Of a stretch of 64,000 nucleotides of DNA, positions 1,427-60,438 are shown in pieces. Numbering within the stretch: position 1 is the first letter of the stretch; the number at the start of each line of letters is the position of its first letter. This stretch comes from Candidatus Marinacidobacterales bacterium (GTDB lineage: Bacteria; Acidobacteriota; Vicinamibacteria; Marinacidobacterales; DATDRI01): NCBI GenBank assembly GCA_965219415.1, contig CBDCNP010000002.1, forward strand, positions 4,448,001 to 4,512,000, written 5' to 3'. Both the position numbers and the translations under genes were made by a program. The notes below the pieces were generated by a model. That model searched no databases. It was not told the DNA's origin and saw nothing but the letters and a program-made list of their open reading frames with translations.

Positions 1427-1617
1427 CTTCGCTTCCTCCCTAAAAGCGTGGACGGTGGTTGCCGGTGTCAATTTCACGGCGGCTCGGGCTCAATAGTTGC
1501 CCTCCGCTACCTCTTGGGTGCTTCCGCCATCAAGTGATGGAATGGACTCCTCCACTGACATAGACGGCATCGATGTGCCAAAGTCAGTCGAATACGCATC
1601 GAAAAGGAGGAGTCCGA

Positions 1618-2649
1618 ATGAAAGATACGACAATCGCTGTGGATCTTGCAAAGAACGTCTTCGAGATTGCCATCTCGGGAGAAGCGGGGAAGGTGTCCAA
1701 GCAACTCCGTGTGAGTCGACCCAAATTGGTGTCGTTCTTTGCCAAACAGAGCGCTGCCACCGTGCTTCTCGAAGCCTGCGGCTCGGCTCACTTCTGGGCA
1801 AGGACGTTCCGAAGGTTGGGACACGACGTCGTCCTGCTCCCACCTCACCTCGTGAGGCCGTATCGACGCGGGAGCAAGAACGACCGCGCCGACACGAAGG
1901 CGTTGCTCGAGGCCTACAGGAACGAGGAGCTTCTTCCCGTACCCATCAAGTCCGTGCACCAGCACACCCTCGCTGCGCTCCATCGCCTGCGCTCAGGATG
2001 GCTCTCCACACGGACCGCACGCATCAATGCCGTACGCGGGCTCCTGCGCGAACTCGGATTCATCATCCCAAAGGGCGCTCACTTCGTCGTGCCCGCCCTC
2101 TTCGAACTCGTCGAAGACGCTGATTCTGATTTGCCCGACGTGCTCCGTTCGCATCTCCGTGATGCCTGCTCCGAGATTCGAGAACTCAAGGACAAGTGCG
2201 CTAGCATCGAGCACGAGCTCAAGGCGCTCACCAAGCAGCTTCCTGAAGTCCAACGACTTCTCGCCATTCCCGGCATCGGACTTCTGGCCGCGACCGCCAT
2301 CGTGGGCTTCGTCGGCGATCTTCGCCGCTTCCCATCGGGGCGCCGCTTCTCGAGCTACCTCGGCCTAGTTCCCAAGGAAAACTCCAGTGGCGACATTCGC
2401 CGCCTCGGACGCATCACCAAGCGTGGCGACTCCTACCTCCGTATGCTCCTCACCCAGGGCGGGCGCGCCGTGCTCCGCGCGGCGAACGTCAGCAAGAGCC
2501 CGCCCGACAAGCTCCGCGCCTGGGCTCGGAAGGTCCACCGCTCGCGGGGACACAACAAGGCCGTGATTGCTGTCGCCAACAAACTCGCCCGGATCGTCTG
2601 GGCCGTCTCCACCCGCGAGAGTGAATTCCAGTCGCCGGTGGCCGCTTAG
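1618..2649 (+). CDS. IS110 family recombinase/transposase
   Basis: DLAKNVF, LEACG, KNDRAD (DEDD), IPGIG, GLVP..SSG, ANKLARI motifs; AGGAGG RBS before ATG 1618. Confidence 0.95.
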   Translation: MKDTTIAVDLAKNVFEIAISGEAGKVSKQLRVSRPKLVSFFAKQSAATVLLEACGSAHFWARTFRRLGHDVVLLPPHLVRPYRRGSKNDRADTKALLEAYRNEELLPVPIKSVHQHTLAALHRLRSGWLSTRTARINAVRGLLRELGFIIPKGAHFVVPALFELVEDADSDLPDVLRSHLRDACSEIRELKDKCASIEHELKALTKQLPEVQRLLAIPGIGLLAATAIVGFVGDLRRFPSGRRFSSYLGLVPKENSSGDIRRLGRITKRGDSYLRMLLTQGGRAVLRAANVSKSPPDKLRAWARKVHRSRGHNKAVIAVANKLARIVWAVSTRESEFQSPVAA

Positions 2650-2965
2650 ATTTAGAGGCTCCACTTTCGTGTTTTCCTTTTTCCCTTCCAAAAGAGGCTG
2701 CGACGATACCCATCCAACTGATGGCGTACCGGTCGGACCGGCGCGGGGTCAAGCCAATAGCAACACTGGCCCTAAGAGGTCGTTCAAAGTGATTGGCTCC
2801 TCGCGCGCGGATTTTCCATCATGGCCCGGAGCACCCAAGACGCTCCTCACTGAGGCCGAAGATACGTTTGCAGTCTGACCCACTCGTCACGACGCGATGG
2901 ATGCGCAGCTTCGATGGAAGATTTATTAAGAAAGGGGCGTGACTAGAAAGAAAGGGGCTTGACTA
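2650..2965 (+). ncRNA. Predicted bridge/seek RNA region of IS1111
   Basis: TAGCAACACT (2758-2767) is complementary to the target and TTCCATCAT (2814-2822) is complementary to the predicted circle junction; RNA boundaries unknown. Confidence 0.7.
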
Positions 2966-3205
2966 GAGGAGTCCAGATATGTTGCTACGCCGTGTTTGAA
3001 TGCTAGTGTCAGCTGGCCTGCCTGTATCGGCGAACGCCATCAATAAGGATGTCGGCGTGCACACGAAGGTGTCTCTGAACGTCAGGCACCGTGTGGTCAG
3101 CCCAGCCCGCATCGCCGAAAGAACTGCGTCTCTCGAAATCAGGCTCAAACTCTAGCACACGAGCGGGTTACGCGGCAGCTACCAACACTTGATGGCGGAA
3201 GCACC

Positions 3206-3408
3206 TCTACCTCGAGCTCCCCGTATCCCTCTTGCTCCATGACTTCTACTTCACCTAGACGACGCGTCTTCTTGCGTTCCTTGACCCTTCGTAGCAGACT
3301 TCCCATATCGGCTCCTTTCTTGAGCGGCTTGATTTAGCTTTTGACAACGTCATCAAACCACCCGAGAGGGAGCCGTTTCAAATTTCAACTAAGAGTGGCA
3401 CACATTCC
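3206..3408 (-). pseudogene. IS256-like left end with truncated transposase N-terminus
   Basis: GGAATGTGTGCCACTCTTAGTTGAAATTT end; MGSLLRRVKERKK..GYGELEVE cut by the C end at 3205. Confidence 0.5.
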
Positions 3409-4641: not shown

Positions 4642-4766
4642 CGTCCTGTGCCAAAACTCGGCCCAGCCGGCATCGACGAAAGAACTGCGCCTCTCGAAAT
4701 CAGGCTCAAACTCTAGCACGCGAACGGGATACACGGCAGGCGCCAACATTTGACTGCGGAAGCACC
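4642..4766 (+). mobile_element. Hybrid A-C MITE (about 125 bp); further copies 10383-10507, 20153-20277, 22963-23088, 47914-48039
   Basis: Near-identical repeats starting CGTCCTGTGCCAAAACTCGGCCCAGCC and ending GCGGAAGCACC. Confidence 0.8.
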
Positions 4767-4880: not shown

Positions 4881-5837
4881 ATGCGACACTTCCCCATTCC
4901 CGTATGGATCGCTGTGCTCGCCACGGGCTCGTGGCACAACCCCGCCACGGCCCAGACGTCGTGGCGGGGCTTGGTGGTTGCCCCCGAATCCCGTTGCTCC
5001 CCGTACGATGCTGACGACTATCGGTATCCGCAGTCTGTGGAGGACCGGGTCATCGCCGAGCTTGGCGGCGTCTATGGTCCCTACACGGGCCGCTGGTTCG
5101 CCAACAAACGGGAGACGGACATTGAACATATCGTCGCCCGCTCCGAGGCACACGACAGCGGACTTTGTGTGGCGGATGAAGCGACCCGCCGACGCTTCGC
5201 AACGGATCTGCTGAATCTGACGCTGGCAAGTCCCGGCGTGAACCGGAACCAGAAGCGCGCTCGGGATGCCGCGGAGTGGTTACCCGACCAGAACCGGTGC
5301 TGGTTCGCAGACCGTAGCGTCGCTGTCCGCCGAAAGTACGGTCTGACGATAGACGAGCGCGAAGCAGACACCCTTGAACGCGTGTTGTCTGGATGCCAGT
5401 CGACCGACCTCGTCATGGTGGCCCGTGGTGCCTCACCGGTCGCTCAGGACATCACCCCGACGGCCGCCGCTGCGCGTGAGATACTCACCCAGTGGGACGA
5501 CAACGACGATGGCCGTATCACGTGCGCCGAGGCTCGCACCCATGGGATCGCCCCGGTGCGCCGCGACCATCCGGCCTACGCCTATATGCGCGATGGTGAC
5601 GGCGACGGGATTGTCTGCGAAGCGGGTGGCGGTGAGGCCAAGGGCGGCACGGCGCGCCAAGGCTCGGCCCCCGCGACCAGCGGCAGTAGCGCGCTCCGTC
5701 AGTACGACGACAACGGCAACGGCCGCATCACTTGCGCTGAAGCACGGCGCCACGGGATCGCGCCAGTGCGCCGCGGCCATCCTGCGTATCCCTACATGCG
5801 AGATGCCGACGGGGACGGAGTTGTCTGCGAGCGCTGA
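4881..5837 (+). CDS. Secreted HNH (DUF1524-like) nuclease with two excalibur-like Ca-binding repeats
   Basis: Signal peptide; DIEHIVARSEAHDSG..NL..VNR.K; duplicated DDN..GRITCAEAR.HGIAPVRR.HPAY.YMRD.DGDG.VCE. Confidence 0.75.
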   Translation: MRHFPIPVWIAVLATGSWHNPATAQTSWRGLVVAPESRCSPYDADDYRYPQSVEDRVIAELGGVYGPYTGRWFANKRETDIEHIVARSEAHDSGLCVADEATRRRFATDLLNLTLASPGVNRNQKRARDAAEWLPDQNRCWFADRSVAVRRKYGLTIDEREADTLERVLSGCQSTDLVMVARGASPVAQDITPTAAAAREILTQWDDNDDGRITCAEARTHGIAPVRRDHPAYAYMRDGDGDGIVCEAGGGEAKGGTARQGSAPATSGSSALRQYDDNGNGRITCAEARRHGIAPVRRGHPAYPYMRDADGDGVVCER

Positions 5838-6953: not shown

Positions 6954-7426
6954 GGGCCCCTTTGCTCCACGGGCGTTGCCCCGTTTCAACGCTACTACGG
7001 ACCCAGCCGCCACCGTCTCGTCTTCGACCGTTTTCCCGGGGCCTCCGGTTATGCGGTCTACCTTGCTCCGTCGATTTCTCGACGGGACGAGGACGGCTTC
7101 TCCAGTGGCTTGGTATGTCCTTGTCACCGTGCTGTCCCTACCACCCCGCCAGAGGGATGTGCCTCATCAGATAGTCTGACAACACATCCTGTTGCCTTCG
7201 TCCGACACGAGAAAACTCGGCCTCTGGGGTCTATTTTTTTGTCGGGGCCACCTATGGGTTCACTTGTGTTACGGCCCGGTGACTCGCTCACCATCCTCAA
7301 GATGGCTTTGTCAGTCAGCTTCATCCGTCTCGTTTCCTCCACGAACGTGACTCAAGCTACGGGGCGCTAACTTTTTCCCCGGTGGGACTCTCTCCCACTG
7401 AACATGCCAGCCTTCGCTGGACGCAC
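6954..7426 (-). mobile_element. Group II intron 5' fragment (approximately DI-DIII; no RT ORF, no DV/DVI)
   Basis: Minus strand starts GTGCGTCCAG at 7426; EBS-like CAAAAA and TCGTGTC; GGAGCAAAGGG DIII-like motif; second copy 56005-56400. Confidence 0.8.
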
Positions 7427-8557: not shown

Positions 8558-8705
8558 CGTCCTGTGCCAAAACTCAGCCCTTTTGAAATAGACCATAAAT
8601 CAGCAGCTTAGACGCCGTTGGAATCGGCGCAGAATCCAGGCTATTTCGCGCCGCAGGGCTGACTTCCGACCCATGGGGCTGGCGGATGAATAAATAGAAG
8701 GCACA
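8558..8705 (+). mobile_element. A-B MITE (about 147 bp); full copies also 28576-28722, 38884-39030, 49373-49520, 52794-52941, 55358-55504; partial 28838-28931, 47631-47744
   Basis: Near-identical repeats CGTCCTGTGCCAAAACTC...GGATGAATAAATAGAAGGCACA in both orientations. Confidence 0.9.
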
Positions 8706-9816: not shown

Positions 9817-11001
9817 AGGATGTCTGGCTGCTCTGGAGAGTCGAAGTACAGTTTCTGGCCAGGGCTCAGTTGCCGTGCTGTTCGCACGATCCTTCTGGAG
9901 TGGAGAGAGCGAACGTTCGACACGTCTGTAAATACCGGGGGCATTCAAGGGGTCCGGCTAGCCAGGTGACTTTCTCCCTGCCATGCTTGGGCATGACGAG
10001 AGCCCTCCGAGTTCGCCAGATCTACGACCATAGGCTGCGCGATGCCATCGCTGCGACGGGTAATGCGGACCTGTTCCGGAACGTTGCGATCCCGGCATCG
10101 ACGCGACGCACGTGAGCGCGTGGCGAGGTGCGGCCCGTGGTCGCTTCGGTGGACGTTGAGCTATCGGATTGCTGGCGCGGCTGTTGAAGCTTCGTGGGCC
10201 AGACGATTGTAAAGCCCACGGCCCTTGGCCCGGTCGCAAACACAGACACTAAGCTGCTGATTTATGGCCTATTTCAAAAGGGCTGAGTTCTGGCACAGGA
10301 CGGGGTAGATCTACGTCAGAGGGTTCACAGCCCTGACGTGGTGAATCAGCAGAAAACCCAGATGCGCGTCCGTCGCGGTTCCCGTCCTGTGCCAAAACTC
10401 GGCCCAGCCGGCATCGACGAAAGAACTGCGCCTCTCGAAATCAGGCTAAAATTCTAGCACGCGAACAGGTTACGCGGCGGCCGCCAACACTTGACTGCGG
10501 AAGCACCCATCGGTGCATCGGTTGCGTGACCTTCATCATTATTGTGGTCGGCACCCTGAGCATCAGCGGGGGAACCGTCCAGCGCAGCGGGCTTCTGGTC
10601 AGGCTCCATCGTTGTCCTCCGCCGTGATTCGGCCACGGGTGCTCCGCGATAGGCGGGGCGGACACGGACTCTATGCCGTCCTGTGCCAAAACTCGGCCCT
10701 TTTGAAAGACCATGGCTGTAATTTAATGCACCGTAAAGTCTCAGTGTCATTTTACCAACACTTAATGGCGGAAGCACCCATGAGGTCTGTGTGAGCGGCA
10801 GGGCTGCCCGATCGAACAACGGTTGCCTGACCAACAGTAGGAATTGCACATGGTACGTCATGATGGACCCGAAGATAACACCCTCGGGCCAGACGATTGT
10901 AAAGCCCACGGCCCTTGGCACCATCGCAAAACACAGACGCTAAGCTGCTGATTTATCGGCTATTTCAAGAGGGCCGAGTTTTGGCACAGGACGGGGTTAA
11001 A

Positions 11002-12048
11002 CTAACGCGGACCTATCTCGACGTTTCGGTAGACCGCACCCACGATCGATTCCCGTCGCTCCTGGATGCCGAGTTCCACGTAAAGCACTGCCGTTTTGTA
11101 GGCGCGTCTGTAATTGATGCGGATCACGCTCTGCCCTTGCAAAAAAACGCGGACCACATGACCATCGCCTTCTTTCCCCCATTCGAGCCGCCAGCGGTAC
11201 ACTGTGTTGGCGTTCCACTCAATGAAATTGAATCCTCGATCAGATTCTTCGCCGTTGGAGATCCAGCGGAGGCGAACGAACGGGGGATTATGCCGCCGGT
11301 CCAGCTTCTGTAGGTGCACCCGAAACGGGTTAGTGCGATACCGTCCCTCGGTCGGATCCCACATTCCTAACAGCATGAACTGATCCGGAGACGCGTTGAG
11401 TGGTTTGAGCCCCAAATTCTCCCACTCCACGAAGCCTTTCACCAAACTCGAGAGTTCGTAGCGGATGAAATCCTCGCTCCTGGTCACTTCCCACCCTCGA
11501 GGGGTGAACTTGCCACCACTCACCTGACCCAACGAGGTGCCGTTGGTGAGGGGGTCCACGATCTCCTCCGTCACCTCTGGCTCGGTTGGTGGCGGGGGCG
11601 GCGTGGCGTTCGGGTTTACGGTGAACCAAGAATTGCTGAACGGTCCCTCTCGATTCTCGAGATGTGCCTGAACCCTCCAATGATAGTCGCCTTCTGGAAG
11701 CGCCGACGGCACACGCCACTGGGCACGCCCATTTCCGCGCGGCTCGACCCTGCCCGAAGCTGCGATCAAACCGTCGAATCGGGAGTTTCGGGACACCTGA
11801 AACGTGTAGACCGCTCCCGGGGCATTGGTCGCGTCGCCAGCGATCAGGGTTGGGCGGATACCCACTTCCTCGCCGGCATCCGGCTTGTAAAGGGTCGGTG
11901 CGCCGAGGACGGGGCCCGGTTGATCGTCACCCGGAGGGGGATCACTGCCAATCGGGGTTTCGCCGCCCAAGCAGGACAACTGAAAGAGCAAAAGAACGAA
12001 AGGCGGGAAAACGTATTTCGGTTGCTGAAGTAAGAAACCTCGTTTCAT
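11002..12048 (-). CDS. Exported/lipoprotein with Fn3-like and Pro-rich segments
   Basis: Signal ..LLFQLSC, YTFQVS..F..YHWRVQA, PPPPP linker. Confidence 0.6.
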   Translation of the reverse strand: MKRGFLLQQPKYVFPPFVLLLFQLSCLGGETPIGSDPPPGDDQPGPVLGAPTLYKPDAGEEVGIRPTLIAGDATNAPGAVYTFQVSRNSRFDGLIAASGRVEPRGNGRAQWRVPSALPEGDYHWRVQAHLENREGPFSNSWFTVNPNATPPPPPTEPEVTEEIVDPLTNGTSLGQVSGGKFTPRGWEVTRSEDFIRYELSSLVKGFVEWENLGLKPLNASPDQFMLLGMWDPTEGRYRTNPFRVHLQKLDRRHNPPFVRLRWISNGEESDRGFNFIEWNANTVYRWRLEWGKEGDGHVVRVFLQGQSVIRINYRRAYKTAVLYVELGIQERRESIVGAVYRNVEIGPR

Positions 12049-12227
12049 GATCGACATCATCCGGCAAACGATGCGCGGCACGCGTGTATCTAGCGCCGAC
12101 AACCTGCTGGCCCTCCACCTGCTCGAATCTCCGAAGCTCGGTAAGCCCATCACCATCCTACATCACTGCACGCATGACGGTCGAGCCTTGCGCCTGCTGA
12201 CGCTAGTCGACGAATACACCAAGGAGT

Positions 12228-13713: not shown

Positions 13714-14609
13714 TCAACTGGCCTCGAACGTAAACTGAACTCGATAGATGCCTACGCCCTGTGGTATCCCCCCACCAATCCACACCTCATAGCGCCCAGA
13801 GCGGTTGAGTTTCTTCTTCGTGCGCACGGTCCCTCTGCCCATGTCGCCTTCTATTTTTTTCCCGTCGGGAGCCACGACCGTTGTGTGGAGCAACGCGAGT
13901 CCGCGCTGTTTCTCGACGTTAATAATCAACTCACCTGGCTGCTCGATCTCAAGTAGGTAGCATCGTTGAAGGCACCGGCTGTGCTCTTGTCAAGCGTAGC
14001 GGGCATGAGCACATCACCTGCGCCCAAGCGCCCGGTCGTCGAGAAGCTGTGGCTTTCAATCATCTGGTGTTCGTCACTCTCACGATGGTTCGCGGAACTT
14101 TCTCTTCGGAGGAACTGCGCGTATTCCGTCCACCCACGGGCGCTCTCGATGTATCGGTTCCCGTCTCTCCATTGGTTTATGGCCGCTTGGTAGTCCTGGA
14201 TGGCAAGAGCGAACGCCAGCTTCACATCTGCCCATTCGTCGCCGGTCGACTTGATATAGCTTGTTACCGTAGGCATCGTTTCGACGAGCCTCTCGTTGAA
14301 CTGCTCCCGCAAGAGACCGATCTCAAGTGAAGCTTGAAACTCCTCGATTGCGGCGAAGGCGGATTTGAATTCTGTTGACTCACTCTCAACATCGTCACTG
14401 CCTTCTAGTTTGCCCGCGAAAGAAATGTACTTGACGTTGTCAGTCGGAATGCTGATTTTCTGCCCCGCGATCACAACGGAAACAGAGTCGTTGGTCGCCC
14501 CGCCGAACGTACCCTCAACCGAGTCTCCATCTTTCGTTGCGACAGAAACTTTCCGTTCTTGTGCTATGGCAATCCCTACCGTCGCGCCCAGGACGGCGAC
14601 GAAACACAT
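13714..14609 (-). CDS. Hypothetical exported protein (two overlapping ORFs, possibly one frameshifted gene)
   Basis: ORFs 13926-14609 and 13714-13929; signal peptide. Confidence 0.45.
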
Positions 14610-14993
14610 GAGTGTTTGACTACAGTGCAGAGTACTTTCCCCTCTCAGTGAGTGTGACACAGGTTTGGTTGAGCTTCCAATGCTACCTCGTCCTGTGCCA
14701 AAACTTGATCCACTGGTAACGTTACAAGCGACCAGTTGACGCGGCGTGGACGGTGGGGCCTGCAACAACCATTGAGCGGAGCTACCCTCCTTGGTCCGGT
14801 CGCAAACACAGATACTAAGCTGCTGATTTATAGTCTATTTCAAAAGGGCCGAGTTTTGGCACAGGACGGGGGGGCCATCAGGCCGTGGAAAACTTGACAG
14901 CAATGGCACCGCCCGCGTGGGCGGAGGTCATCGGGGAGTGACCGAAATTCGTTCGTTCACTCGAAAGTACCAAATAACTACTATCTCGTACGA

Positions 14994-15020
14994 TTAGCGC
15001 TCGGGTGTGTAGAGTGCTAA
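14994..15020 (+). promoter_or_regulatory. CIRCE operator (HrcA)
   Basis: TTAGCGCTC-N9-GAGTGCTAA, one mismatch to consensus, upstream of hsp20-groES-groEL. Confidence 0.92.
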
Positions 15021-15044
15021 TATGTCGAGGTTGATGAATTACAC

Positions 15045-15490
15045 ATGCCACTCGCCCATTGGGACCCCGTGCGTGAGCTTCTTGCGCTCCAAGAACGGAT
15101 GAACCGGCTAATCGATCAGACGCTGTCGCGCACGCGCTCCGAGGGGGAGTTCTCGACCACAGGGGCATGGTCCCCCGCCGTGGATCTCTACGAAGCCCAA
15201 AAGAGCCTCGTTCTCAAGGCCGAGCTCGCCGAAGTAGATCAAGACGACATCGAGCTTCACATCGACGACGATCGAGTGACGCTGTAAGGCAAGCGCCCGG
15301 TCAACGAAGCCATCAACGAGAAACGGTTCGTACGATGGAACGTTCCTACGGCCCGTTCCATCGTACGTTCGAGCTCCCGACGAGCATCGAAACGGACAGA
15401 GTAAAGGCCGATTTCAAGAAGGGCATTCTGGCGGTGATCATGCCGAAGAAGGCGAGCGAGAAAAGCCGTCAGATTCCCATCAGTAGTTGA
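15045..15490 (+). pseudogene. Hsp20 small heat-shock protein with internal stop and frameshift
   Basis: WSPAVDLYE..AEL, TAA at 15285-15287, ERSYGPFHRTFELP..FKKGIL in another frame. Confidence 0.85.
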
Positions 15491-15551
15491 CCGCCGTCGG
15501 GAGCTCGACCCCGCCGACAGGTCCTGAAAAACAAGGAGGAGTAATCGAGAG

Positions 15552-15842
15552 ATGAAGATCAAACCGATAAAGGACAACATTGTCGTGAAGCGGATCGAGG
15601 AGATAGACGAGAAGAAAGTCGGATCCATCATCATTCCCGACACGGCGAAGGAAAAGCCGATGACGGCCGAAGTCATAGCTATCGGATCGGGCCGGACTTT
15701 GAATGACGGAAAGAAGGTTGCGCTCGAGGTGAAGGTGGGCGACAGAGTGCTCATCGGCAAGTACTCGGGCTCGGAAGTGAAACTGAACGGAACTGAGTAC
15801 CTCATCCTCAAAGAGGACGAAGTACTCGGCATCGTGGAATAG
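15552..15842 (+). CDS. groES: Co-chaperonin GroES
   Basis: KPIKDNIVVK, IIIPDTAKEKP, KYSGSEVK. Confidence 0.97.
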   Translation: MKIKPIKDNIVVKRIEEIDEKKVGSIIIPDTAKEKPMTAEVIAIGSGRTLNDGKKVALEVKVGDRVLIGKYSGSEVKLNGTEYLILKEDEVLGIVE

Positions 15843-15858: not shown

Positions 15859-17511
<1,653 letters not shown>

Positions 17512-45205: not shown

Positions 45206-46491
45206 TGTGCATCGTCAAAACTGCTCCGCCCACGAAATCAAGGACTTACGCTCCGCTTGAATTCCGGGCCGAAGACGGCGAAACTCCGCCGCTATGCTCA
45301 ACGTTGTTGTCTTCCTCGTCTCACTTGGCGTCCGTGCCATTCGGGCGATGTGTCGGCGCCGCGCCGACCTGGTGTTGGAGAACGTCGCTTTGCGGCAGCA
45401 AGTGACGGCGCTGAAGAAAGAGCGCCCACGCCCACCGCTCGACGACACGGAACGGGTTTTCTGGGTTGCCCTTCGAGGTTCGTGGCCCGTGTGGGCGAGC
45501 CGCCTGCTCATCGTCCACGCGGACACCGTAGCCCGTTGGCATCGCGATCGATTCCGACGGTACTGGGCAAATATCTCGCAGCGCCGCCATCCCGGTCGGC
45601 CTCGGATTGATGCCGAGATTCGTCGCCTCGTCCGCACGATGGCGCAAGACGGCTGGGGGGCGCCACGCATCCATGCTGAGCTCACCAAGCTCGGTTTCAT
45701 CATCTCCGAGATCACGGTGTCGCGATACCTGCCGCGGCGTCCCGCGGAGCCCGACCAGCTGAAACGATGGATGGCTTTCTTGCGCAACCATAAAGACGAT
45801 ATCGCCGCCATGGATCTGTTCACCGTGCCCACCGCGTCGCTCCGGCTGCTGTACGGCTTCTTCGTCATCGAGCACGGTCGCCGGCACATCGTTCACTTCA
45901 ACGCCACGTTCCACCCGACGTCTGCTTGGGTTATTCAGCAACTCCGCGAGGCGTTTCCCTACGACACCGCTCCGAGATATCTCATCTTCGATCGCGACTT
46001 CATCTTTAACACTGCGGTCATCGAGTTCATCAAGGCAACGGGCACAAAACCCGTTCGCACTTCGTTTCGCAGCCCATGGCAAAACGGAACCGCGGAGCGG
46101 TGGGTCGGCAGCTGCCGTCGCGAGCTCCTTGAGCACGTCGTGGTTCTCGGTGCATGTCATCTCATCCGGCTCGTGCGAGCTTACATCAGCTACTATCATG
46201 AGGACCGTTGCCACTTGGGGCTGAACAAGGACACACCGAGCTTGAGGACGGTCACGCACCGACCGTCTCCTACGGCGAAAGTCGTCGCACTGCCGCGAGT
46301 CGGTGGACTGCACCATCGATACGAGTGGCGAGAGGCAGCCTGAGTCAGCTTGGTCGCTCGCGTTACTCGGCTGGTCGCCGAGAAGTTCGTCCTCAGCACC
46401 TTCCCTCGCGCGCTGACCACGCTCTCCAGCATGTGCTCGAGGGCGGTCCGGGCCCTAGAGTCCAGTCCCGGATTAATAATGATGATGGACA
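45206..46491 (+). mobile_element. Element F copy 3 (CDS 45294-46343)
   Basis: 1286 bp, intact ORF. Confidence 0.88.
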
Positions 46492-46847
46492 ACTGGTTCT
46501 CGGTGAGCGATGAAGAACAGGAGCGTCGGTTCAAACAGCGCATCAAGGACCCCATGCGCCGCTGGAAGATCAGCGAGATGGACTTGAAATCGCGCGGGAA
46601 ATGGGTCGAGTACTCGATGGCCAAGGACGAGATGTTCAAATACACCGACATCAAGCAAGCGCCCTGGTTCGTCGTGCGTGCGGACGACAAGAAGCGGGCC
46701 CGACTCAATGTAATCGCTCACTTGCTAGATCAGATTCCCTACAATGAGCTCAAGGACCCCAAGATCAAATTGCCGGATCGCCAGGAGAACGTCGGTTACG
46801 TTCGGCCGCCGATCACCGAACAGACTTTTGTTCCCGAAGTGTACTAG
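46492..46847 (+). pseudogene. ppk2: Polyphosphate kinase 2 C-terminal fragment
   Basis: WFSVSDEEQ..RF, RWKIS.MD, APWFVV.ADDKKRARLN. Confidence 0.88.
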
Positions 46848-47229
46848 GAAGAAGAGACCATCTTAGAGGAGACCGGATGTCCCAATTGAAAAATTTGCGC
46901 ACTTCCCTTGTTCTCGTAGCCCTGCTTGCCGCCACGCCTTCCTTCGCCGGCGACGGCGAAATCACCGGCGGTGCTTGCGCCATTTACTGTTGGTGATGTG
47001 TGCGCATCCCTTTGCAAAAGAGGCGCTTACGCTCCATTTAGCGCGCAGCGAAGGTCACGAGCGCTATTTGGGCTGTAATTTAATGCACCATATAGCCTTA
47101 GCGTCATCTCACCAACACTTGATGGCGGAAGCACCGAAGTTGGCGCAAATAGAGTGCTGGATGATTTCGAGGTTTGGTCAATTCGAATTCCGCTGTGCCT
47201 TCTATTCATTCATCCGCGCGCACCGAACT

Positions 47230-47399: not shown

Positions 47400-48563
47400 C
47401 GTCCTGTGCCAAAACTCGGCCCTTTTGAAATAGACCATAAATCAGCAGCTTAGCGACTGGGCCAAGGGCCCTGTGCCTTCTATTTTATTCATCCGCGCGC
47501 CCCGAACTTGATTAGTCTTCGGTCTACCGGCACCATACCTACATGATTTCGTCGTTTGTTCTTACTCTCATCTCTGCCTTCAAGGCTCGTCGCGAGCTGG
47601 TGCCCGCGGATGAATAAAATAGAAGGCACAGGTCGGAAGACAGCCCTGCGGCGCGAAATACCCTCGATTCTGAGCGGATTCCAAGGGCGTCTAAGCTGCT
47701 GATTTATGGTCTATTTCAAAAGGGCCGAGTTTTGGCACAGGACGGCATAGAGTCCGTGTCCGCCCCGCCTATCGCGGAGCACCCGTGGCCGAATCACGGC
47801 GGAGGACAACGATGGAGCCTGACCAGAAGCCCGCTGCGCTGGACGGTTCCCCCGCTGATGCTCAGGGTGCCGACCATAATGATGATGAAGGTCACGCAAC
47901 CGATGCACCGATGGGTGCTTCCGCAGTCAAGTGTTGGCGGGCCGCCGCGTAACCTGTTCGCGTGCTAGAATTTTAGCCTGATTTCGAGAGGCGCAGTTCT
48001 TTCGTCGATGCCGGCTGGGCCGAGTTTTGGCACAGGACGACGTCGTTTACTATCACCACGAGAGGAATCATCAAGGCAAGGAGAATCTGCTGCTGTTCCC
48101 AGCCAGCGACCCGTTACCTCAGTCCGAGCGCAAGGTGCGCTCCCGTGAACGGCTTGGCGGGTTGCTACGTTTCTACCATCGGGAAGCCGCATGAGTATTT
48201 TGACCTCACGACTAAGCTGCTGATTTATGGGCTATTTCAAAAAGGCCGAGTTTTGGCACAGGACGGGCTCAATTCCTTAGAAGTTTGACAAGAGCGGGAG
48301 GGAAAAAATGAGTCGCAAGATGGTTTGTAGCGAGTGCGAGTGCGGGGTCGATATCTGCGACACGCTTTCCGACACCAAGCGGCTGTGCTGCGTCTGTTGG
48401 GCGCTTGAGCAGGAAACCGAGACGCCCTACGAGTCCATGTGCTCGAAGTGCTCCGAGCGCGTGAAAGAATGGAACGGACTATGAGGCTTGAGGTCGAAAA
48501 CCTGATGGGAATCGAGAAGGTTGAGTTCGACCTTCTCCCGGGCCGGGTGGTCGAATTCGTGGG

Positions 48564-49372: not shown

Positions 49373-50045
49373 TGTGCCTTCTATTTATTCATCCGTCAGC
49401 CCAATGGGTCGGAAGTCAGCCCTGCGGCGCGAAATACCCTGGATTCTGCGCGGATTCCAAGGGCGTCTAAGCTGCTGATTTGTGGTCTATTTCAAAAGGG
49501 CCGAGTTTTGGCACAGGACGGGATGATTCAGGCGGACGTGAATCGAGACCGTCGGCAGTACGAGGAGACGGATGACGACAGGGACGCGCGATTGATTTCG
49601 TACCTGATTGACGTGCTGTTGCTTGGCAGACACGCGGAATTCCCACATGCTGGTTCGTCCGCTGGAGAATCGGTGATCGCGAACTGGAGTCTGGTTGGCA
49701 GGGCCATGACGGGACGACTTCGACCCGACTGAGATATCGGCTTCAAACGGGAAGCCGCATGAGTATTTTGACCTCACGGGAGGACGGCGAGCTGCTCCCG
49801 AAGAGTGACATTCTCGAGAGCTAGCTCGCGACGAACCTTGAAGGCAGAGATGAGAGCGGGAACCAACGACGAAATCATGCCGGCATGGTGCTGGTAGACC
49901 GAAGATCAATCAAGTTCGAAACGCGCGGATGAATAAATAGAAGGCACAGGCGGAAGCTGGAAGGCAATTTCACGTTCCTGCTGATGACTGACAACGCAGC
50001 CTGAGCATTCTACGATCTACAACATCTTGGGCATAACTCCGCAAA

Positions 50046-51452
50046 CTATGGCCTTGCGTTGCGAAGCCTCAGGGACATCTGTCGATACGTCTCACAGTTC
50101 TTGACACAGGCCACAGTCTCTCTTTGCGTAAACCCCATCGCCCTCATAAAGCACGCCTCAAGCAAAAGACGCAGGACCCAATTGTAACGCACTGCGCGCT
50201 CTGACGACTGCGAGTTACCCTCATCGGCCGCTTGTACAGGAAAATGGGTGAAGGCATTGCGAAGCTCCACTATTCTTCCAACCCACTGCTCCGGATCCTC
50301 CACCAATACTTCTAACGTCTCCCTGTGCTCGCAGACCAACTCTCCCAGCCGGTGACGCAGAGAATACTCATTCGCAAACTTGAGCCTGGAGTCGATCGCC
50401 CGGCGTAGCCGGGCTTCCACCGTAGCGGGGATCGCTGCAATCAAGGGCTTGAGAACTTCGGTCTCGAACTTCTCCTTTCCCGTCATATAAAGTCCCTGAT
50501 AGTACCGCCGATGGAGTGCTTCCGCGGCCTGTGTAAGAAACAGGAACTTCTGTTCAACAAAGCCTCTACCGTGGACGCCCTCGAAATACAAAGCCCGCAC
50601 GTAACGCAGATCTTCCGACTGCGACAACCATGCGCCGATCACCCGTGAAACGTCACCTTGAATATCAGCCAAACGAAACAGCCAGAATGATGCTTCCCGC
50701 TCACGTGCCTTGTAGATAGGAACTGCATGATAAGTCCCGTATTCCTGAAAATCTCCATCTTGTGACCGCAACAACGACGTCTCAGTCCTTTCACAACGAC
50801 TCAGGCTGGCTATAGACAGAAAATCGATCCAGGCGTGTATGAGGTCGTCAAACCTCGACAAAGCGCGCGGCTCTTTGGCCTCAACCTCGAAGCGAATTTC
50901 TTCGTGTATAGACAAGTCGTGCCGGGCATGGGAGTATGAACATGTGGGCCTAAGCGACACGCGGAAGCAGCCATCATCATGCACAACATGTGGCGCCTGA
51001 GCAGTGTAATGTACCGCAATGTTCGGAAACTCCACGCTATGATCATCCTTGATGCCCGAGTGTCCCCACCACTCGTTGAGAGACCTTAGCGACACAGAAA
51101 CCGTATCCAACAAAGGATCCTGGTCACAATGAAATCCCTGGATCACCGCGTTGGCGTAGACTTCGACCGAACGTGGTCCGCCTTGTAGGTTGAGGTTCGA
51201 TGACTTGTGGTAGCATCCTATAAGCGTAACCAATTTGGCCTTCGTCGTAACGCCGACAATAGTGGAGTCTTCTGAAATCAGACGCTGTTTTAACCGTGGA
51301 GGTCCCTGGACGACCATCGGTACAGTAAGGCGAAGAGTGCCACCTTCACGGTCATCGAAGCGGAGAGTGCCGCTCCATTTCTGACCCGGGTTTGTTGGAT
51401 CCCACCAATCTCCATCATGCTCAAAAGCCGCGGTCTCCTGTTTTGGGTTCAT
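50046..51452 (-). CDS. ApeA-like HEPN protein (putative anti-phage)
   Basis: G.WW.P..GTL.F N-terminus, FL.LTQAAE.LHR, RNAFTH (RxxxxH). Confidence 0.8.
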   Translation of the reverse strand: MNPKQETAAFEHDGDWWDPTNPGQKWSGTLRFDDREGGTLRLTVPMVVQGPPRLKQRLISEDSTIVGVTTKAKLVTLIGCYHKSSNLNLQGGPRSVEVYANAVIQGFHCDQDPLLDTVSVSLRSLNEWWGHSGIKDDHSVEFPNIAVHYTAQAPHVVHDDGCFRVSLRPTCSYSHARHDLSIHEEIRFEVEAKEPRALSRFDDLIHAWIDFLSIASLSRCERTETSLLRSQDGDFQEYGTYHAVPIYKAREREASFWLFRLADIQGDVSRVIGAWLSQSEDLRYVRALYFEGVHGRGFVEQKFLFLTQAAEALHRRYYQGLYMTGKEKFETEVLKPLIAAIPATVEARLRRAIDSRLKFANEYSLRHRLGELVCEHRETLEVLVEDPEQWVGRIVELRNAFTHFPVQAADEGNSQSSERAVRYNWVLRLLLEACFMRAMGFTQRETVACVKNCETYRQMSLRLRNARP

Positions 51453-51773
51453 CTGAGATTCGCCAAACGCTACGAGCTTCTCAAGATTCGCAGAAAGATC
51501 ATCTCGGGGACGCCTATCCGCCCGCTCTCACACTCCAATTCGCGCGTGTGTCACCGAAGCAGGGGGACCACCTGTCCACGGTCACCAGTTAGATGCTCCG
51601 ACCAACCCAACTATCTTACCGCATCACCAGCTCTCCGACACCGACGGCTTCGCACGACAGCCGCCCGGATCGGCACACCGCTCAGCCGAGTTCGGTAACA
51701 ACCGGCGCTGTCGAATACGACATCGGCCCACGAACTGGTAATATATGGCTAAGCTATTCTCAATTGTGATGTT

Positions 51774-52793
51774 ATGGTTGAGTCAACTTATGTTTCGGAT
51801 CACCCGATCAGGCGTGGAGACGAAGACCGGCTCGATCGCCAACCGTTCGCTGAACGGCTCGCCAAAACTCTCGTAGAGCGACAAGATCTAAGTAGCCTCG
51901 TGGTTGGGATCTACGGGCCTTGGGGCGATGGCAAAACCTCTGTTTTGCACATGATGGAGGAGGTTCTCCAGCAGTCGACCGATGTCGTTATCGTTTGGTT
52001 CAATCCATGGTATTACGAATCTGAACATCAACTGATCGACATTTTTTTCTCCAATCTCGCCGATGCAGTCCAAAAGAAGCTGAAAACCCAGCCCGAAGAA
52101 TTCGGCGAACTATTGAGGACATATAGCTGTTTCCTATCCATTGCGAGCCGCTCTGTCGGCCAAGCGGCAGAACAAATGGGAGAAAAATTGTCGGCAGTCA
52201 CGCTTGAGGATTGCAGGGACCGCATTGCGAAGACTCTGTCAGACCTCGACGGCCGAGTGGTCGTCCTCATCGATGATATCGACAGACTTGAACGACGGGA
52301 AATTCAAGCGGTCTTCAAGCTCGTAAAACTGTCCGCGGGATTCTCAAACATATCCTACGTACTAGCTTTCGACGACAATGTCGTTACGGATTCGCTAGCA
52401 GAGCGATACGGTGGAGGCGACTCTGACGCTGGCCGCGCATTTCTTGAAAAAAATTGTTCACATGCCTTTGCATTTACCACCCGCAGATGAACTGTCACTT
52501 CGTAAAATAACGTTCGAGGGCGTCGATCGGGTTCTGAAGACGGCAGAAATCGATTTGAACGATGAGGAAGTTCAACATTTTGTGAACAATTTCATTCGTG
52601 GAGTACAGTTGCGTCTGACGACACCTCGTCTAGCCAAACGCTATGTGAATGCTTTGACATTCGGCATCCCGATCTTGAAGGGAGAAGTGAATATAGTGGA
52701 TCAAATGCTAGTTGAGGCTGTTAGGATATTTTATCCGAAACTGCACGTCGCTATTCGGACACATCCGGACGTATTTTTGGGCGAGAGGCAGCC
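51774..52793 (+). pseudogene. KAP family P-loop NTPase, frameshifted in an A run and truncated by MITE
   Basis: GPWGDGKTS, FNPW, IDDIDR, FLEK, TPR..KR.VN. Confidence 0.88.
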
Positions 52794-52989
52794 TGTGCCT
52801 TCTATTTATTCATCCGCCAGCCCCATGGGTCGGAAGTCAGCCCTGCGGCGCGAAATACCCTGGATTCTGCGCGGATTCCAAGGGCGTCTAGGCTGCTGAT
52901 TTGTGGTCTATTTCTAAAGGGCCGAGTTTTGGCACAGGACGCGGTGGCCTCCAGGCCGTGGAAAACTTGACAATACCGTTGGGAACAGG

Positions 52990-55281: not shown

Positions 55282-55504
55282 CAGGCACTCCTTACAATCA
55301 GAAGGTTAAGCAACATAATATGACAGGTGCTTCCGCAATTAAGTGTTGGCGGCCAGCTGTGCCTTCTATTTATTCATCCGCCAGCCCATGGGTCGGAAGT
55401 CAGCCCTGCGGCGCGAAATACCCTGGATTCTGCGCGGATTCCAAGGGCGTCTAAGCTGCTGATTTGTGGTTTATTTCAAAAGGGCCGAGTTTTGGCACAG
55501 GACG

Positions 55505-55644: not shown

Positions 55645-56004
55645 CGTTTTTTTGAAGTCCTTACCCTTGGGGCGGGACTTATCATGGCAGGATGACCTGA
55701 CCCCACGGTTAGTACCACGTTGTATCTCAGTCATTCGGTGCTGACAAGGGCTGGTTGAAGCCGGCGTGGCAAAGCCGGTTTCAACCAAATCGTTTCAAGT
55801 TTTGTGTCTGTCTTTCCCCTGAAATGGGATGTTGTTAGGTCTGGTCGCCACCCTTGCCTATGGCGCCGTGGGGCGCTTCTTAGTTTATGGAAGGGACAGC
55901 CGAGTTTTGGCACAGGACGGGGGCGGAAGGCAAAGGCAGAGGACCCGAAGCTCAAGGAACTCGAGCGTGAGAATGCGCGCCTGAAGCCGTCGTCTCGCTC
56001 GGGT

Positions 56005-56400
56005 GGAAACGAGACGGATGAAGCTGACTGACAAAGCCATCTTGAGGATGGTGAGCGAGTCACCGGGCCGTAACACAAGTGAACCCATAGGTGGCCCCGA
56101 CAAAAAAATAGACCCCAGAGGCCGAGTTTTCTCGTGTCGGACAAAGGCAACAGGATGTGTCGCCAGACTATCTGATGAGGCACATCCCTCTGGCGGGGTG
56201 GTAGGGACAGCACGGTGACAAGGACATGCCAAGCAACTGGAGAAGCCGTCCTCGTCCCGTCGAGAAATCGACGGAGCAAGGTAGACCGCATAACCGGAGG
56301 CCCCGGGAAAACGGTCGAAGACGAGACGGTGGCGGCTGGGTCCGTAGTAGCGTTGAAACGGGGCAACGCCCGTGGAGCAAAGGGGCCCTGCTGCACACAA
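56005..56400 (+). mobile_element. Second group II intron fragment
   Basis: Near-identical to reverse complement of about 6954-7340. Confidence 0.8.
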
Positions 56401-57646: not shown

Positions 57647-58424
57647 GGTAGCCGTCGATACGACGTAGCTTGATCTGACCGGAAGCTACGAGTCCGAAAA
57701 GCAAAGCGCCGGCGGACTCCTCGGTGGTGAACGACGCCTGGGTCTTGGTCCGGCGGCGAAACTCGCGGTTCAAGTTTTCCAAGGCGTTGGTTGTACGGAT
57801 CGACTTCCACATTGCACGCGGGAACTCGTAGAACGTGAGGAGGTGGCCACCTGCCTCCTGATCAGCGACGGCCACAAGGGGCTGACGAAAGCGCTGGAGA
57901 AGTGGCCGGGGTGCCGGTGGCAGCGATGTACCGAGCACAAGCGCGCCAACTTGCTCCAACATTGCCCGGCGCACGCACGCCGTGAGCTCCGGCGTGACTA
58001 CAACCGGATCGTCTACGCCAAGAACGGGTTCGATGCTCGCAAAGCCTATGACGAGCTCGTCGCCAAGTGGACGCCTCTCGCGCCGGCCGTCGTCCGAAGC
58101 CTAGAGGAGGCCGGCAATCAGCTGCTGACCTTCTACGAATTCCCTCGTGCCATGTGGAAATCGATTCGAACGACCAATGCTCTGGAGAATCTCAACCGCG
58201 AGTTTCGACGCCGGACGAAAACCCAAGCGTCGTTCTCCAGCGAGGAGTCTGCGGTCGCTTTGCTGTTTGGGCTTATCGCCTCTGGCCAGATTCAACTACG
58301 ACGCATCGACGGCTACCAACGTCTGAGCGAGGTTCTCGAACACGCGGAGGTTGCCGCCTGATATGATACTCTGATGACGGAGTGGAGGGCGCCGTTCTTT
58401 TTCCACGGACCTCGGGACACATCC
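57647..58424. pseudogene. Two divergently fused IS256 fragments (57647-57842 minus; 57843-58424 plus with right end)
   Basis: Both encode RTTNALENLNREFRRRTK. Confidence 0.8.
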
Positions 58425-58571
58425 GATCCTCATGTTTCCGGAGATTGAAGGGACCGAGTCGTTCTGGAAGGCTCACACGCCTCCGAACCTCCTTGAGCGA
58501 ATCGGGGTCTAGGGTTTGAACAAATACAGGAAAATGATATGTGTCGAATACGGGATTATGCATTTCACTAA

Positions 58572-59081
58572 ATGCGCCCACAGTGGCAGGCTCCGGGGGT
58601 GGTTAAGGCCAAATTCGCTTGGAACTCGCTGTTCATCGCCGGAGATATTTTCGCGGTCGTGCGTTGGATTTTCAAGGACGGGCTCACAGTGAACATCCAG
58701 CTTGGGTACCCAGAATACGCAGCTATTCTTGCGTTTTGCACCTCGATGCTTATCTTGACCAATTGGAAATGGATAAATAGGCTGAGGCCGTCGGTACAAT
58801 TTTCTGGGTTGCATCCAGAGATTGTAAGGTGTCGAGACGAAGCGGCAAAGCTAATGCAGCTCAAATCCTTCGAGCCAGAAAAGTTCGCGTTGATCCTGGA
58901 GTTACAGTACGAATTTGAGCGATTGGAAATTCCAACGCCCATGAAAGATTTGAGGGGATTGAAGACACCTGTCCAGTTTGCAGCTTGGAAAGATGCCCTG
59001 TTTGTGTTTTTTCAAAAAATGGTACCCCTCGCAAAGCATCGTGAATTGAAGAAGGCTCGTGCGTATTGGAAATCAGCCTAG
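58572..59081 (+). CDS. Hypothetical membrane protein
   Basis: Lower-GC ORF with hydrophobic N-terminal half. Confidence 0.45.
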   Translation: MRPQWQAPGVVKAKFAWNSLFIAGDIFAVVRWIFKDGLTVNIQLGYPEYAAILAFCTSMLILTNWKWINRLRPSVQFSGLHPEIVRCRDEAAKLMQLKSFEPEKFALILELQYEFERLEIPTPMKDLRGLKTPVQFAAWKDALFVFFQKMVPLAKHRELKKARAYWKSA

Positions 59082-59158
59082 ATGGGCATTTGACTAAATC
59101 CTAGGCCTCGCCCTATAGTCCCACCTGCCAAACAACTGCGGTAGGTCCATCCCATCGG

Positions 59159-60438
59159 TGTGCATCGTCAAAACTGCTCCGCCCACGAAATCGAGGACTT
59201 ACGCTCCGCTTGAATTCCGGGCCGAAGACGGCGAAACTCCGCCGCTATGCTCAACGTTGTTGTCTTCCTCGTCTCACTTGGCGTCCGTGCCATTCGGGCG
59301 ATGTGTCGGCGCCGCGCCGACCTGGTGTTGGAGAACGTCGCTTTGCGGCAGCAAGTGACGGAAGAAAGAGCGCCCACGCGCACCGCTCGAAGACACGGAA
59401 CGGGCTTTCTGGGTTGCCCTTCGAGGTTCGTGGCCCGTGTGGGCGAGCCGCCTGCTCACCGTCCACGCGGACACCGTGGCCCGTTGGCATCGCGACCGAT
59501 TCCGACGGTACTGGGCAAAGATCTCGCAGCGCCGCCATCCCGGTCGACCTCGGATTGATGCCGAGATTCGTCGCCTCGTCCGCACGATGGCGCAAGACGG
59601 CTGGGGGGCGCCACGCATCCATGCTGAGCTCACCAAGCTCGGTTTCATCATCTCCGAGAGCACGGTGTCGCGATACCTGCCGCGGCGTCCCGCGGAGCCC
59701 GACCAGCTGAAGCGATGGATGGCTTTCTTGCGCAACCATAAAGATGATATCGCCGCCATGGATCTGTTCACCGTGCCCACCGCGTCGCTCAGGCTGCTGT
59801 ACGGCATCTTCGTCATCGAACACGGTCGTCGGCACATCGTTCACTTCAACGCCACGTTCCACCCGACGTCTGCTTGGGTTATTCAGCAACTGCGTGAGGC
59901 GTTTCCCTACGACACCGCTCCGAGATATCTCATCTTCGATCGCGACTTCATCTTTAACGCTGCGGTCATCGAGTTCATCAAGGCAACGGGCACAAAACCC
60001 GTTCGCACTTCGTTTCGCAGCCCATGGCAAAACGGAACCGCGGAGCGGTGGGTCGGCAGCTGCCGTCGCGAGCTCCTTGAGCACGTCGTGGTTCTCGGCG
60101 CATGTCATCTCATCCGGCTCGTGCAAGCTTACATCAGCTACTATCATGAGGACCGTTGCCACTTGGGGCTGAACAAGGACACACCGAGCTTGAGAGCGGT
60201 CACGCACCGACCGTCTCCTACGGTGAAAGTAGTCGCACTGCCGCGAGTCGGTGGACTGCACCATCGATACGAGTGGCGAGAGGCAGCCTGAGTCAGCTTG
60301 GTCGCTCGCGTTACTCGGCTGGTCGCCGAGAAGTTCGTCCTCAGCACCTTCCCTCGCGCGCTGACCACGCTCTCCAGCATGGACTCGAGGGCTGTCCTGG
60401 CCTGGAGTCCAGTCCCGGACTAATAATGATGATGGACA
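59159..60438 (+). mobile_element. Element F copy 4, frameshifted near 59360
   Basis: Small deletion relative to the other copies. Confidence 0.85.

Follow-up and report, generated by a model that had tools for sequence, protein, structure and literature searches.

The DNA analysed here (the window) is a stretch of 64,000 nucleotides, C3:4448001-4512000, from a bacterial genome assembly, G000, of 8,046,490 bases in three contigs: C1 (2.07 Mb), C2 (0.28 Mb) and C3 (5.69 Mb), each with a G+C content of about 59%. Between a peptidase gene on the left and a restriction-modification locus on the right, the window is packed with the ends of insertion sequences (IS) and of miniature inverted-repeat transposable elements (MITEs), with pieces of host genes lying among them. 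The elements belong to several families, are nested and clustered, and bound blocks of other DNA. The segment is thus an IS nest in an IS-expanded, host-associated bacterium. We suggest, with confidence a little above even, that it was formed by nested insertion, by end-by-end deletions and inversions of IS481-like elements and by some duplicative input, within an IS-saturated accessory compartment of the genome.

The assembly is 96.3% complete with 8.45% contamination, and its 8.05 Mb compare with 6.3 Mb for a closed sister genome, G001. The window stretch is partly present in 14 of the 18 public runs listed (seven studies), sponge metagenomes among them, and the labels of these runs suggest that the bacterium is associated with sponges. 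Transposases are described as abundant in sponge symbionts (PMC11410982). In the literature on sponge symbionts and on adjacent deletion, in a search that was not exhaustive, we found no description of the IS architecture of this lineage.

Transposon ends and their parent elements

Terminal sequences of 25-60 nt recur 10-15 times each in the window in a repeat search. We read 14 tip motifs from the sharp boundaries where the ends of window-versus-genome alignments pile up, and a scan with these motifs gave 97 distinct tips, every one inside 1517-60438. A preliminary description of this DNA had counted about 90 stacked transposon ends; its 27 termini of type A are the 27 m1 tips, and its eight of type F are the eight ends of four copies of a 1.28-kb IS. 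The other motifs are m2 (23 tips), m2b (6, one of them shared with m2), m3 (12), m4 and m5 (6 each), m6a and m6b (4 each), m7, m7b, m8 and m9 (2 each), and IS3 and m11 (1 each). Reversed patterns, used as a control, gave 0-2 matches per motif over the whole 8.05-Mb genome. Tips occur in both orientations in the window, and no strand bias of tips was seen in G000 (mean same-strand run 2.1). The sequence adjoining a tip has at least five copies in the genome at 32 tips, two to four copies at 28, and is unique at 37. In a BLAST comparison of the window with its own genome, only 15,710 of the 64,000 bases had no second copy, and the short terminal blocks were found 100-400 times.

The m1 tip, (C)GTCCTGTGCC..., is the end of a 1.43-kb element encoding a 381-aa rve-type transposase (Pfam rve_3, HTH_32 and HTH_21), of which there are 16 complete copies. 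It also terminates two MITEs, one of about 147 nt that runs from m1 to m3 (69 copies genome-wide) and one of 124 nt that runs from m1 to m2 (61 copies); the body of the latter is the 3' part of a 244-nt MITE. The m2 tip, GGTGCTTCCGCC..., is the end of a 1.2-kb IS1-like element, complete in 31 copies, and of MITEs of 170-244 nt. The transposase of the 1.2-kb element scores 40 bits with NF033558 (cut-off 100) and 22 bits with Pfam DDE_Tnp_IS1 (cut-off 24.1). The m6 element, with ends TGTCCATC.../TGTGCATC..., is complete in 49 copies genome-wide, four of them in the window, where none has a target duplication. Its protein reaches 80 bits with NF033577 (cut-off 224) and 83 bits with the IS3 model (cut-off 160), below both thresholds, and is referred to here as IS481/IS3-like. 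The terminal inverted repeats of the m1 and m6 elements have the TGT start that is expected for the IS481 family, and tips m3, m7 and m11 also begin with TGT.

Group II introns are another class of mobile element in the nest. Two pieces were found, both associated with a 98% inverted repeat pair (6954-7340 and 56002-56388). They are the only matches of Rfam in the window, and ARAGORN found no tRNA there. We found no IS6-family element above threshold in the window; the sole IS6 match is a secondary one of 20 bits against a cut-off of 125.

Table 1. Features of the window (positions in nucleotides of the window; aa, amino acids)
Feature	Position	Strand	Evidence and remarks
M4 (thermolysin-type) peptidase gene, left flank	2-1477	-	Pfam Peptidase_M4, M4_C
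244-nt MITE (m2 inverted ends) carrying IS1111-type IS110	1517-3205	+	NCBIfam, junctions; IS110 element about 1537-2979, transposase 1573-2649
124-nt unit, m1 tip and m2 tip	4643-4766	+	Alignment boundaries; others at 10384-10507, 20154-20277, 22964-23088, 47914-48038
Group II intron D1-D4 piece	7264-7400	-	Rfam RF02003, 120 bits (gathering 49)
147-nt MITE, m1 tip and m3 tip	8559-8705	+	Repeat search, tip scan; others at 28577-28722, 38885-39030, 49373-49519, 52794-52940, 55358-55503
Amidohydrolase, C-terminal 362 codons	8706-9820	+	Cut at m3 tip 8705
groEL, intact	14881-17561 (groEL 15862-17511)	+	Pfam Cpn60_TCP1
174-nt MITE (m2b and m2 tips) carrying IS256	17951-19584	+	NF033543, 220.7 bits (cut-off 150); IS256 element 18068-19527, transposase 18174-19469
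3.6-kb piece: M14 peptidase, ABM-domain open reading frame, first 51 codons of hydantoinase	24938-28576	+	Identical copy on C1
MITE (m2 and m2b tips) carrying IS3-family element	31243-32670	+	NF033516, 341 bits (cut-off 160); IS3 element 31266-32523, transposase 31631-32482
1.28-kb IS481/IS3-like element (m6), 349-aa rve_3 protein	34711-35996	-	Repeats, profiles; others at 41334-42618 (-), 45206-46491 (+), 59159-60438 (+)
Sulfatase fragment (profile 208-301 and SGSH_C)	35997-36904	+	Cut at m6 tip 35996; lacks profile positions 1-207
Two truncated IS1-like elements in tandem	37053-38884 (37053-38056, 38064-38884)	-	IS1 model, 40 bits, below cut-off; further partial copies at 43047-43304, 44251-45206
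PPK2 fragment (profile 135-227 of 229)	46492-46957	+	Cut at m6 tip 46491; lacks profile positions 1-134
Unique stretch with defence-type genes	50046-52793		Unique in genome
ApeA-like HEPN gene	50046-51452	-	Profile search; intact
Frameshifted KAP NTPase gene	51774-52899	+	Ends at m3 tip 52794
Quinol-type nitric oxide reductase NorB, intact, 763 aa	52990-55281	-	Between m1 tip 52940 and m2 tip 55326
Second, weaker group II intron piece	55961-56078	+	Rfam RF02003, 53 bits (gathering 49)
Type I restriction-modification hsdM and hsdS, right flank	60460-63562	+	Profile search

Ordinary nested insertions

Part of the end stacking is ordinary nesting of IS3, IS256 and IS110 elements in MITEs. The IS1111-type IS110 element lies within the left terminal repeat of a 244-nt MITE. 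Its transposase scores 302.6 bits with NF033542 (cut-off 140) and carries the Pfam domains DEDD_Tnp_IS110 and Transposase_20. Window positions 2980-3205 and positions 19-244 of the empty MITE are identical at 223 of 226 sites; the insertion interrupts the MITE between positions 18-20 and is flanked by TG at either end, in the site CAAG[TG]TTGC. The element has subterminal inverted repeats (GGACTCCTC / GAGGAGTCC), and nine 1.69-kb units of this type, with identical outer ends, are present genome-wide. Other IS1111-family elements, IS4321 and IS5075, are described as targeting transposon terminal repeats, those of the Tn21 family (PMC11187229). The element found here resembles them in being a DEDD (IS110-family) element with subterminal inverted repeats that sits at a fixed position in the terminal repeat of another element, but it targets one end of a 244-nt MITE, itself related to an IS1-like element, instead of a Tn3-family transposon.

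The IS256 element is flanked by an 8-bp duplication, TTTAATGC. The IS3 element has the ends TGGACTTG...CACTTCA and a 4-bp duplication, GTTG. Genome-wide, 27 of 36 complete IS3 copies keep direct repeats of 3-4 bp, and 25 of the 36 are in the IS-rich part of C3. A wrong passage through repeats would have destroyed these duplications, and we therefore consider the local assembly trustworthy. This makes misassembly, which had been put forward as one alternative, unlikely as a general cause of the architecture. The copies of IS3 are 99.7% identical to one another, those of m1 95.1%, those of m2 96.0% and those of m6 97.5%; the m1, m2 and m6 families are older than the IS3, IS256 and IS110 insertions.

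IS481-like ends lack target duplications and adjoin a tip-like word

We searched for target duplications in seven element classes, with 81 offset combinations and repeat lengths of 2-9. Among the genome-wide complete copies of the older families no target duplication was found at any of the 81 offsets. At the best offset a 4-bp direct repeat was seen in 1 of 16 copies of m1, 3 of 49 copies of m6 and 2 of 69 copies of the m1-m3 MITE, and the 1.2-kb m2 element had no duplication among its 31 complete copies. The only candidate is a palindromic CG present on both sides of m1 (16 of 16), which is inseparable from the inverted repeat.

Duplications that were separated later should recur as direct repeats between ends that no longer belong together. 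When any left end of m6 was compared with any right end, 13 direct 4-mer matches were found against 14 in a shifted control, and 34 inverted matches against 14. For m1 the direct matches were 26 against 65 in the control. The earlier statement that no IS481-like pair in the window has a target duplication thus holds genome-wide, also when any left end is combined with any right end. As a side observation, flanking 8-mers at m2 ends genome-wide occur as direct repeats between end pairs 20 times, against 4 in the shifted control, an excess that hints that the IS1-like family makes 8-bp duplications which are later separated. Elements of the IS1 family produce target duplications of 8-9 bp.

The outward flank of m1 is the word (G)ACCC(C), present on both sides in inverted orientation in G000 as well as in G001. 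Its composition is A47 C41 C70 C60 C73 of 74. Where an m1 flank has a second copy without interruption, the alignment of the two passes through the word and breaks off at -1 to +3 relative to the tip (70 of 88 cases), indicating that the word comes from the target. After the word, these uninterrupted copies have G at 44 and T at 46 of 74 sites, the two bases with which the m1 tip itself begins. One example is the m1 end at 24610, which lies inside an IS256-like element; an intact copy of that element reads ...GAACCCGTTCT... at this point. At m2, in contrast, there is no word, and in 44 of 77 cases the homology reaches precisely to the tip.

We looked for filled and empty alleles among 252 facing tip pairs at most 2 kb apart, and in none of them did both flanks map within 50 nt at one site. 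Where an element is complete, the sequences on its two sides match separate loci. Two other explanations of the junctions were rejected: an excision footprint as the source of the GT after the word, as no inverted word follows in the uninterrupted copies, and a 12-bp palindromic duplication, on the flanks of complete copies in G001.

The absence of duplications together with a tip-like target word is unusual for IS481-like families, and it is the one feature here that could point to a new transposition chemistry. The hundreds of junctions with uninterrupted copies make up a natural data set on target choice and deletions by IS481-like elements.

Gene fragments, intact cargo and copies elsewhere

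Genes were recognised by a Pfam scan of the longer open reading frames of the window, which was not exhaustive. Eight host genes had been named as cut exactly at tips. This was confirmed for five of them, the amidohydrolase (first called a deacylase), hydantoinase, sulfatase, PPK2 and KAP genes. Pfam, at E<=0.05, gave no match for the fragments named as kynureninase, GNAT and TerB-like. Of the hydantoinase gene no more than 153 nt from its start (51 codons) are left, up to the m1 tip at 28577. The five recognised host-gene pieces are all truncated, the cargo lies on both strands, and most of the host cargo consists of dead fragments. Intact genes, in addition to those in Table 1, are a 1-Cys peroxiredoxin, a ferritin and the M14 peptidase of the 3.6-kb piece; the latter has no close relative among the JGI metagenome contigs searched (best match 45%).

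For most low-copy pieces, between one and four near-identical copies are found at scattered sites in the IS-rich zones. Intact parents exist for several of the truncated genes: the amidohydrolase fragment is 99.9% identical to an intact 782-aa gene in unique surroundings at C3:2.56 Mb, the PPK2 fragment is 99.4% identical to full 283-aa copies at C3:4.222 and 3.142 Mb, and the hydantoinase gene is complete on C1, as given below. The sulfatase has a second copy of 456 aa at C3:4.167 Mb (99.8%). We extended 17 pieces that have a second copy by 2 kb beyond each end and searched the window with these extensions. They matched only IS repeats, with one exception, which is another scattered piece; the missing halves of the cut genes are nowhere else in the window.

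In the whole genome there are 339 low-copy duplicates of at least 200 bp, with a median length of 830 bp and a median identity of 98.2% (span 85-100%), and they mostly link IS-rich zones to one another. Adjacent pieces of the window have copies that are not adjacent elsewhere. Simple decay of one ancestral region therefore does not fit.

At each end of the 3.6-kb piece is an m1 tip with its IS body directed outward. The piece is essentially identical to C1:675982-679621, where its genes continue intact and the hydantoinase gene has 696 codons. Judged from syntenic orthologues in G001 and in another related genome, G002, which are 84-85% identical, the piece is native. The groEL gene differs in this respect. 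It is present in four copies, 97-100% identical, in IS-rich zones, the other three at C3 2.528, 2.586 and 5.430 Mb. Its best outside match is 94% in G018, a genome of another family, compared with 78-80% in its own genus and 80% for the groEL on C1. This groEL is therefore probably foreign, a horizontally acquired and amplified cargo.

We checked read depth and junctions with Logan contigs of four public runs from four studies. Contigs of this kind cannot prove absence, and neither the stretches without contig cover in the four runs nor the junctions unseen in runs X9 and X10 were counted as absence. An 8,412-nt contig of X10 starts precisely at 24936 and beyond 28575 continues in sequence that differs from the window, and a 4,430-nt contig of X9 is its mirror image. 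From run X1 there is a contig with 15 differences that spans only the right junction, reaching 22 nt into the m1 tip. The left m1-cargo junction of the 3.6-kb piece is found at 99.5% in G002:C8, with another right boundary and other neighbours. The X1 contig and G002:C8 thus indicate that the tip-cargo junctions of this piece exist in nature. The arrangement around the piece varies between samples, and two copies per genome are unconfirmed.

The IS-saturated compartment and related genomes

The density of ends is not uniform along the genome. With wider settings the genome has 541 m1 tips and 518 m2 tips, almost all of them within C3 1.8-5.7 Mb and at the start of C2. With slightly stricter settings C1 has only one m1 tip and two m2 tips, C3 before 1.8 Mb has a handful, and C3 4.1-5.7 Mb has 15-36 of each per 100 kb. 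In that last zone 23-39% of all 16-mers have at least five copies and about 20% more have two to four. Among 983 overlapping 64-kb windows, 564 have no m1 or m2 tip. The window analysed here has 50 and ranks fourth, about twice the median of its zone (26).

The window is therefore the crest of a megabase-scale IS-saturated compartment and no discrete locus. The sharp split between this compartment and about 2 Mb of nearly clean sequence is unusual. The same architecture spans well over 1 Mb, which argues against a discrete platform for gene capture. If the assembly is right, about one third of the chromosome is a churning store with more than 1000 transposon ends in which both native and foreign gene pieces are duplicated, cut and reshuffled. 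For a microbe associated with animals this would be an extreme IS expansion, cleanly confined to one compartment, with another 2 Mb almost free of these families.

Of the 21 related genomes searched, 8 have m1 tips, which number in the hundreds in G003, G014 and G018. The closed sister genome has the same tips and the same flank word, and 27 of its 30 m1 tips are in one island of about 0.12-0.15 Mb. This island consists of the last approximately 0.12 Mb and the first 24 kb of its contig C1 and spans the sequence start. The single island in G001 suggests a small island as the starting point from which the megabase compartment of G000 expanded. In G003, which belongs to a related genus, all 78 m1 matches among those listed on C2 (0-446 kb) are on the + strand. 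This pattern could be an effect of the listing or a real orientation bias.

Origin of the segment

We suggest that three processes formed the segment. The first is evident from the junctions: younger IS3, IS256 and IS1111-type IS110 elements landed in short MITEs with normal signatures and thereby set ends on ends. The m1 and m6 elements and their MITEs most likely underwent repeated end-by-end events, either intramolecular or one-ended. The ends of IS481-like elements would use tip-like pseudo-sites with the target word (G)ACCC(C), often followed by GT. Such events would delete or invert the neighbouring DNA and leave genes cut exactly at the tip. The extra truncated, near-identical gene copies in the assembly probably stem from IS-mediated segmental duplication, from replicon fusion or from exchange with co-resident strains, and would then have been whittled down. 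The cargo is a by-product of these processes; there is no maintained cassette array.

The preliminary description had proposed that repeated one-ended or intramolecular transposition concatenates short pieces into an array, which is partly supported. The joining step is in line with the missing direct repeats, the (G)ACCC(C) word found per end and the flanks that match different loci, and truncated copies of genes that are complete at other sites are also present. Concatenation as a general mechanism fits less well: 32 of the 97 tips merely abut repeats, and several stacks are ordinary nested insertions with target duplications.

Several observations weigh against our account. No transposition step was observed, and the end-by-end model was drawn from junction statistics. 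Complete copies in G000 and G001 have the flank word at either side in inverted orientation, so that it could partly belong to the terminal repeat. IS481 family elements make target duplications of 4-15 bp; the missing duplications of the IS481-like elements are at odds with this. Deletions and inversions alone cannot make extra copies, so that a duplicative step must be added, and simple attrition of one region does not fit, since adjacent pieces are not from adjacent places. The depth of the 3.6-kb piece, compared with a unique stretch at 29.9-31.0 kb, is 24.5 against 25.4-36 in X9, 19 against 18.3 in X10 and 13.9 against 12.3-13.1 in X1. Single-copy sequence next to the piece has a depth of 25-26 in X9. 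These are single-copy values, and the duplication of this piece is thus unproven.

The strongest competitor, which we nevertheless find unlikely, is a mixture of strains in the assembly. The local mosaic would then be real in part of the cells, and the extra copies would be alternative arrangements present in different strains and laid serially by the assembler, and the segment would be the outcome of rearrangement and decay with neither duplication nor capture. The contamination estimate of 8.45%, the size of G000 relative to G001, the single-copy depth of the 3.6-kb piece in X9, X10 and X1 and the contigs with differing junctions would all be expected in this case. In addition, two contig ends, C3:5681915-5693529 and C2:273651-284250, repeat the inner C3:2937410-2953345 at 99.8-99.95% over 6-11.6 kb, and this may be an unresolved spot of the assembly graph. 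A mixture should leave long collinear haplotypes, but the duplicates are short and scattered and span 85-100% identity. None of the 252 tip pairs is a simple filled-versus-empty allele, several parents are, like the window, on C3, the divergence among the four groEL copies reaches 3%, and the preserved IS3 duplications speak for a sound local assembly.

It is also conceivable, though rather improbable in our judgement, that IS481-like ends follow an unusual pathway in which each acts alone on tip-like targets (ACCCCGT), without duplication, and thereby brings copies of core and foreign gene fragments into the compartment. If this single-end copying were true, bacteria would have an equivalent of transduplication and of eukaryotic 'second speed' compartments, which are rich in repeats.

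More doubtful still is genuine fragment capture by such single ends, a counterpart of transduplication that would maintain an integron-like store. The truncated copies are 99.4-100% identical to intact genes and bounded exactly by tips, and the target word is found per end with no duplication. The same m1-cargo junction occurs in a different neighbourhood in G002:C8, and a foreign groEL has been amplified to four copies. However, there is no discrete platform. The cargo is outside the elements and not between inward-facing ends: the tips abut it and the IS bodies point away. Most duplicates include neighbouring IS or MITE sequence, as segmental duplication predicts, and the host-gene pieces that were checked are truncated and cannot function. 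The copy number of the key example, the 3.6-kb piece, is unconfirmed, and no recombinase, attC-like site or common promoter was found, although no search was aimed at attC. The integron-like platform for gene capture proposed in the preliminary description would matter more than an IS nest, but it is unsupported here: there is no discrete locus, the cargo is mostly dead fragments, and no tyrosine recombinase was found among the scanned open reading frames.

Homologous recombination alone, with normal insertions and duplications followed by crossing-over that shuffles flanks and deletes between copies, could draw on hundreds of copies at 95-99% identity, would account for complete elements with flanks at different loci and has a parallel in the IS-bounded rearrangements described for IS-rich symbionts (PMC3914690), but it is very unlikely, as separated duplications do not recur as direct repeats, the same word stands inverted at both ends, even the 69 copies of the 147-nt MITE lack duplications, and recombination would not position tips at a conserved target word that uninterrupted copies have as well.

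Comparison with known systems

The nearest parallel to the IS nest proposed here is the recently host-restricted weevil symbiont SOPE (Candidatus Sodalis pierantonius), which is described as having 804 IS that make up 18% of the chromosome, with IS-dense clusters, IS-bounded rearrangements and IS-catalysed duplications and deletions (PMC3914690). The two genomes share hundreds of IS copies from a few families, dense patches and IS-bounded blocks. Unlike in SOPE, there are more than ten tip families here, with many MITEs and solo ends, the compartment is contiguous and megabase-scale with a 2-Mb contig C1 nearly free of these families, and the dominant IS481-like families have no target duplications.

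The IS26 arrays of resistance regions, with their pseudo-compound transposons and translocatable units, are built from one IS6-family element in direct orientation. They share with the window short unrelated segments cut exactly at IS tips and the absence of target duplications. The window differs from them in having no IS6-family transposase above threshold, 14 tip types and tips in both orientations.

Integron cassette arrays, in which complete promoterless genes stand in one orientation beside a tyrosine recombinase (IntI) and are separated by attC sites, are likewise strings of short, unrelated, gene-bearing segments separated by repeats. In the window, however, the Pfam scan of the longer open reading frames, which was not exhaustive, found no integrase, the repeats are IS and MITE ends with full-length, transposase-bearing parents, and the cargo is mostly truncated, in both orientations and not confined to a single locus. 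In the transduplication by Pack-MULEs of plants, a fragment is carried between two inward-facing terminal repeats of one element. Extra host-gene fragments beside transposon ends are common to both cases, but in the window the cargo is outside the elements, with the tips turned towards it, and its extra copy number is unconfirmed.

Flanking genes and other observations

The array begins 40 nt beyond the M4 peptidase gene of the left flank. The region 1-1514 has no second copy in the genome, and the left flank has no match in G001-G003. On the right flank, 60460-63562 is 93% identical to two places on contig C2 of G003, which is of another genus, and has no match in the closed genome G001 of the same genus.

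Defence-type genes are found in or beside the array at 4881-5837, 40527-41156, 50046-52899 and 60460-63562 (GmrSD-like, Schlafen AlbA_2, ApeA-HEPN, KAP NTPase and hsdM/hsdS). Three open reading frames have no Pfam or NCBIfam family: 11002-12156 (-, 384 aa), 29399-30700 (+, 433 aa) and 13926-14768 (-, 280 aa). The first of these, which adjoins an m1 tip, is 99.2% identical to a copy on C2.

The pieces encoding an SNF transporter and a peroxiredoxin (21165-22904 and 23172-24208) are present in two copies in the assembly. In public runs they reach approximately 4-20 times single-copy depth at a likeness of at least 95%, which suggests that mobile DNA carries them within the community.

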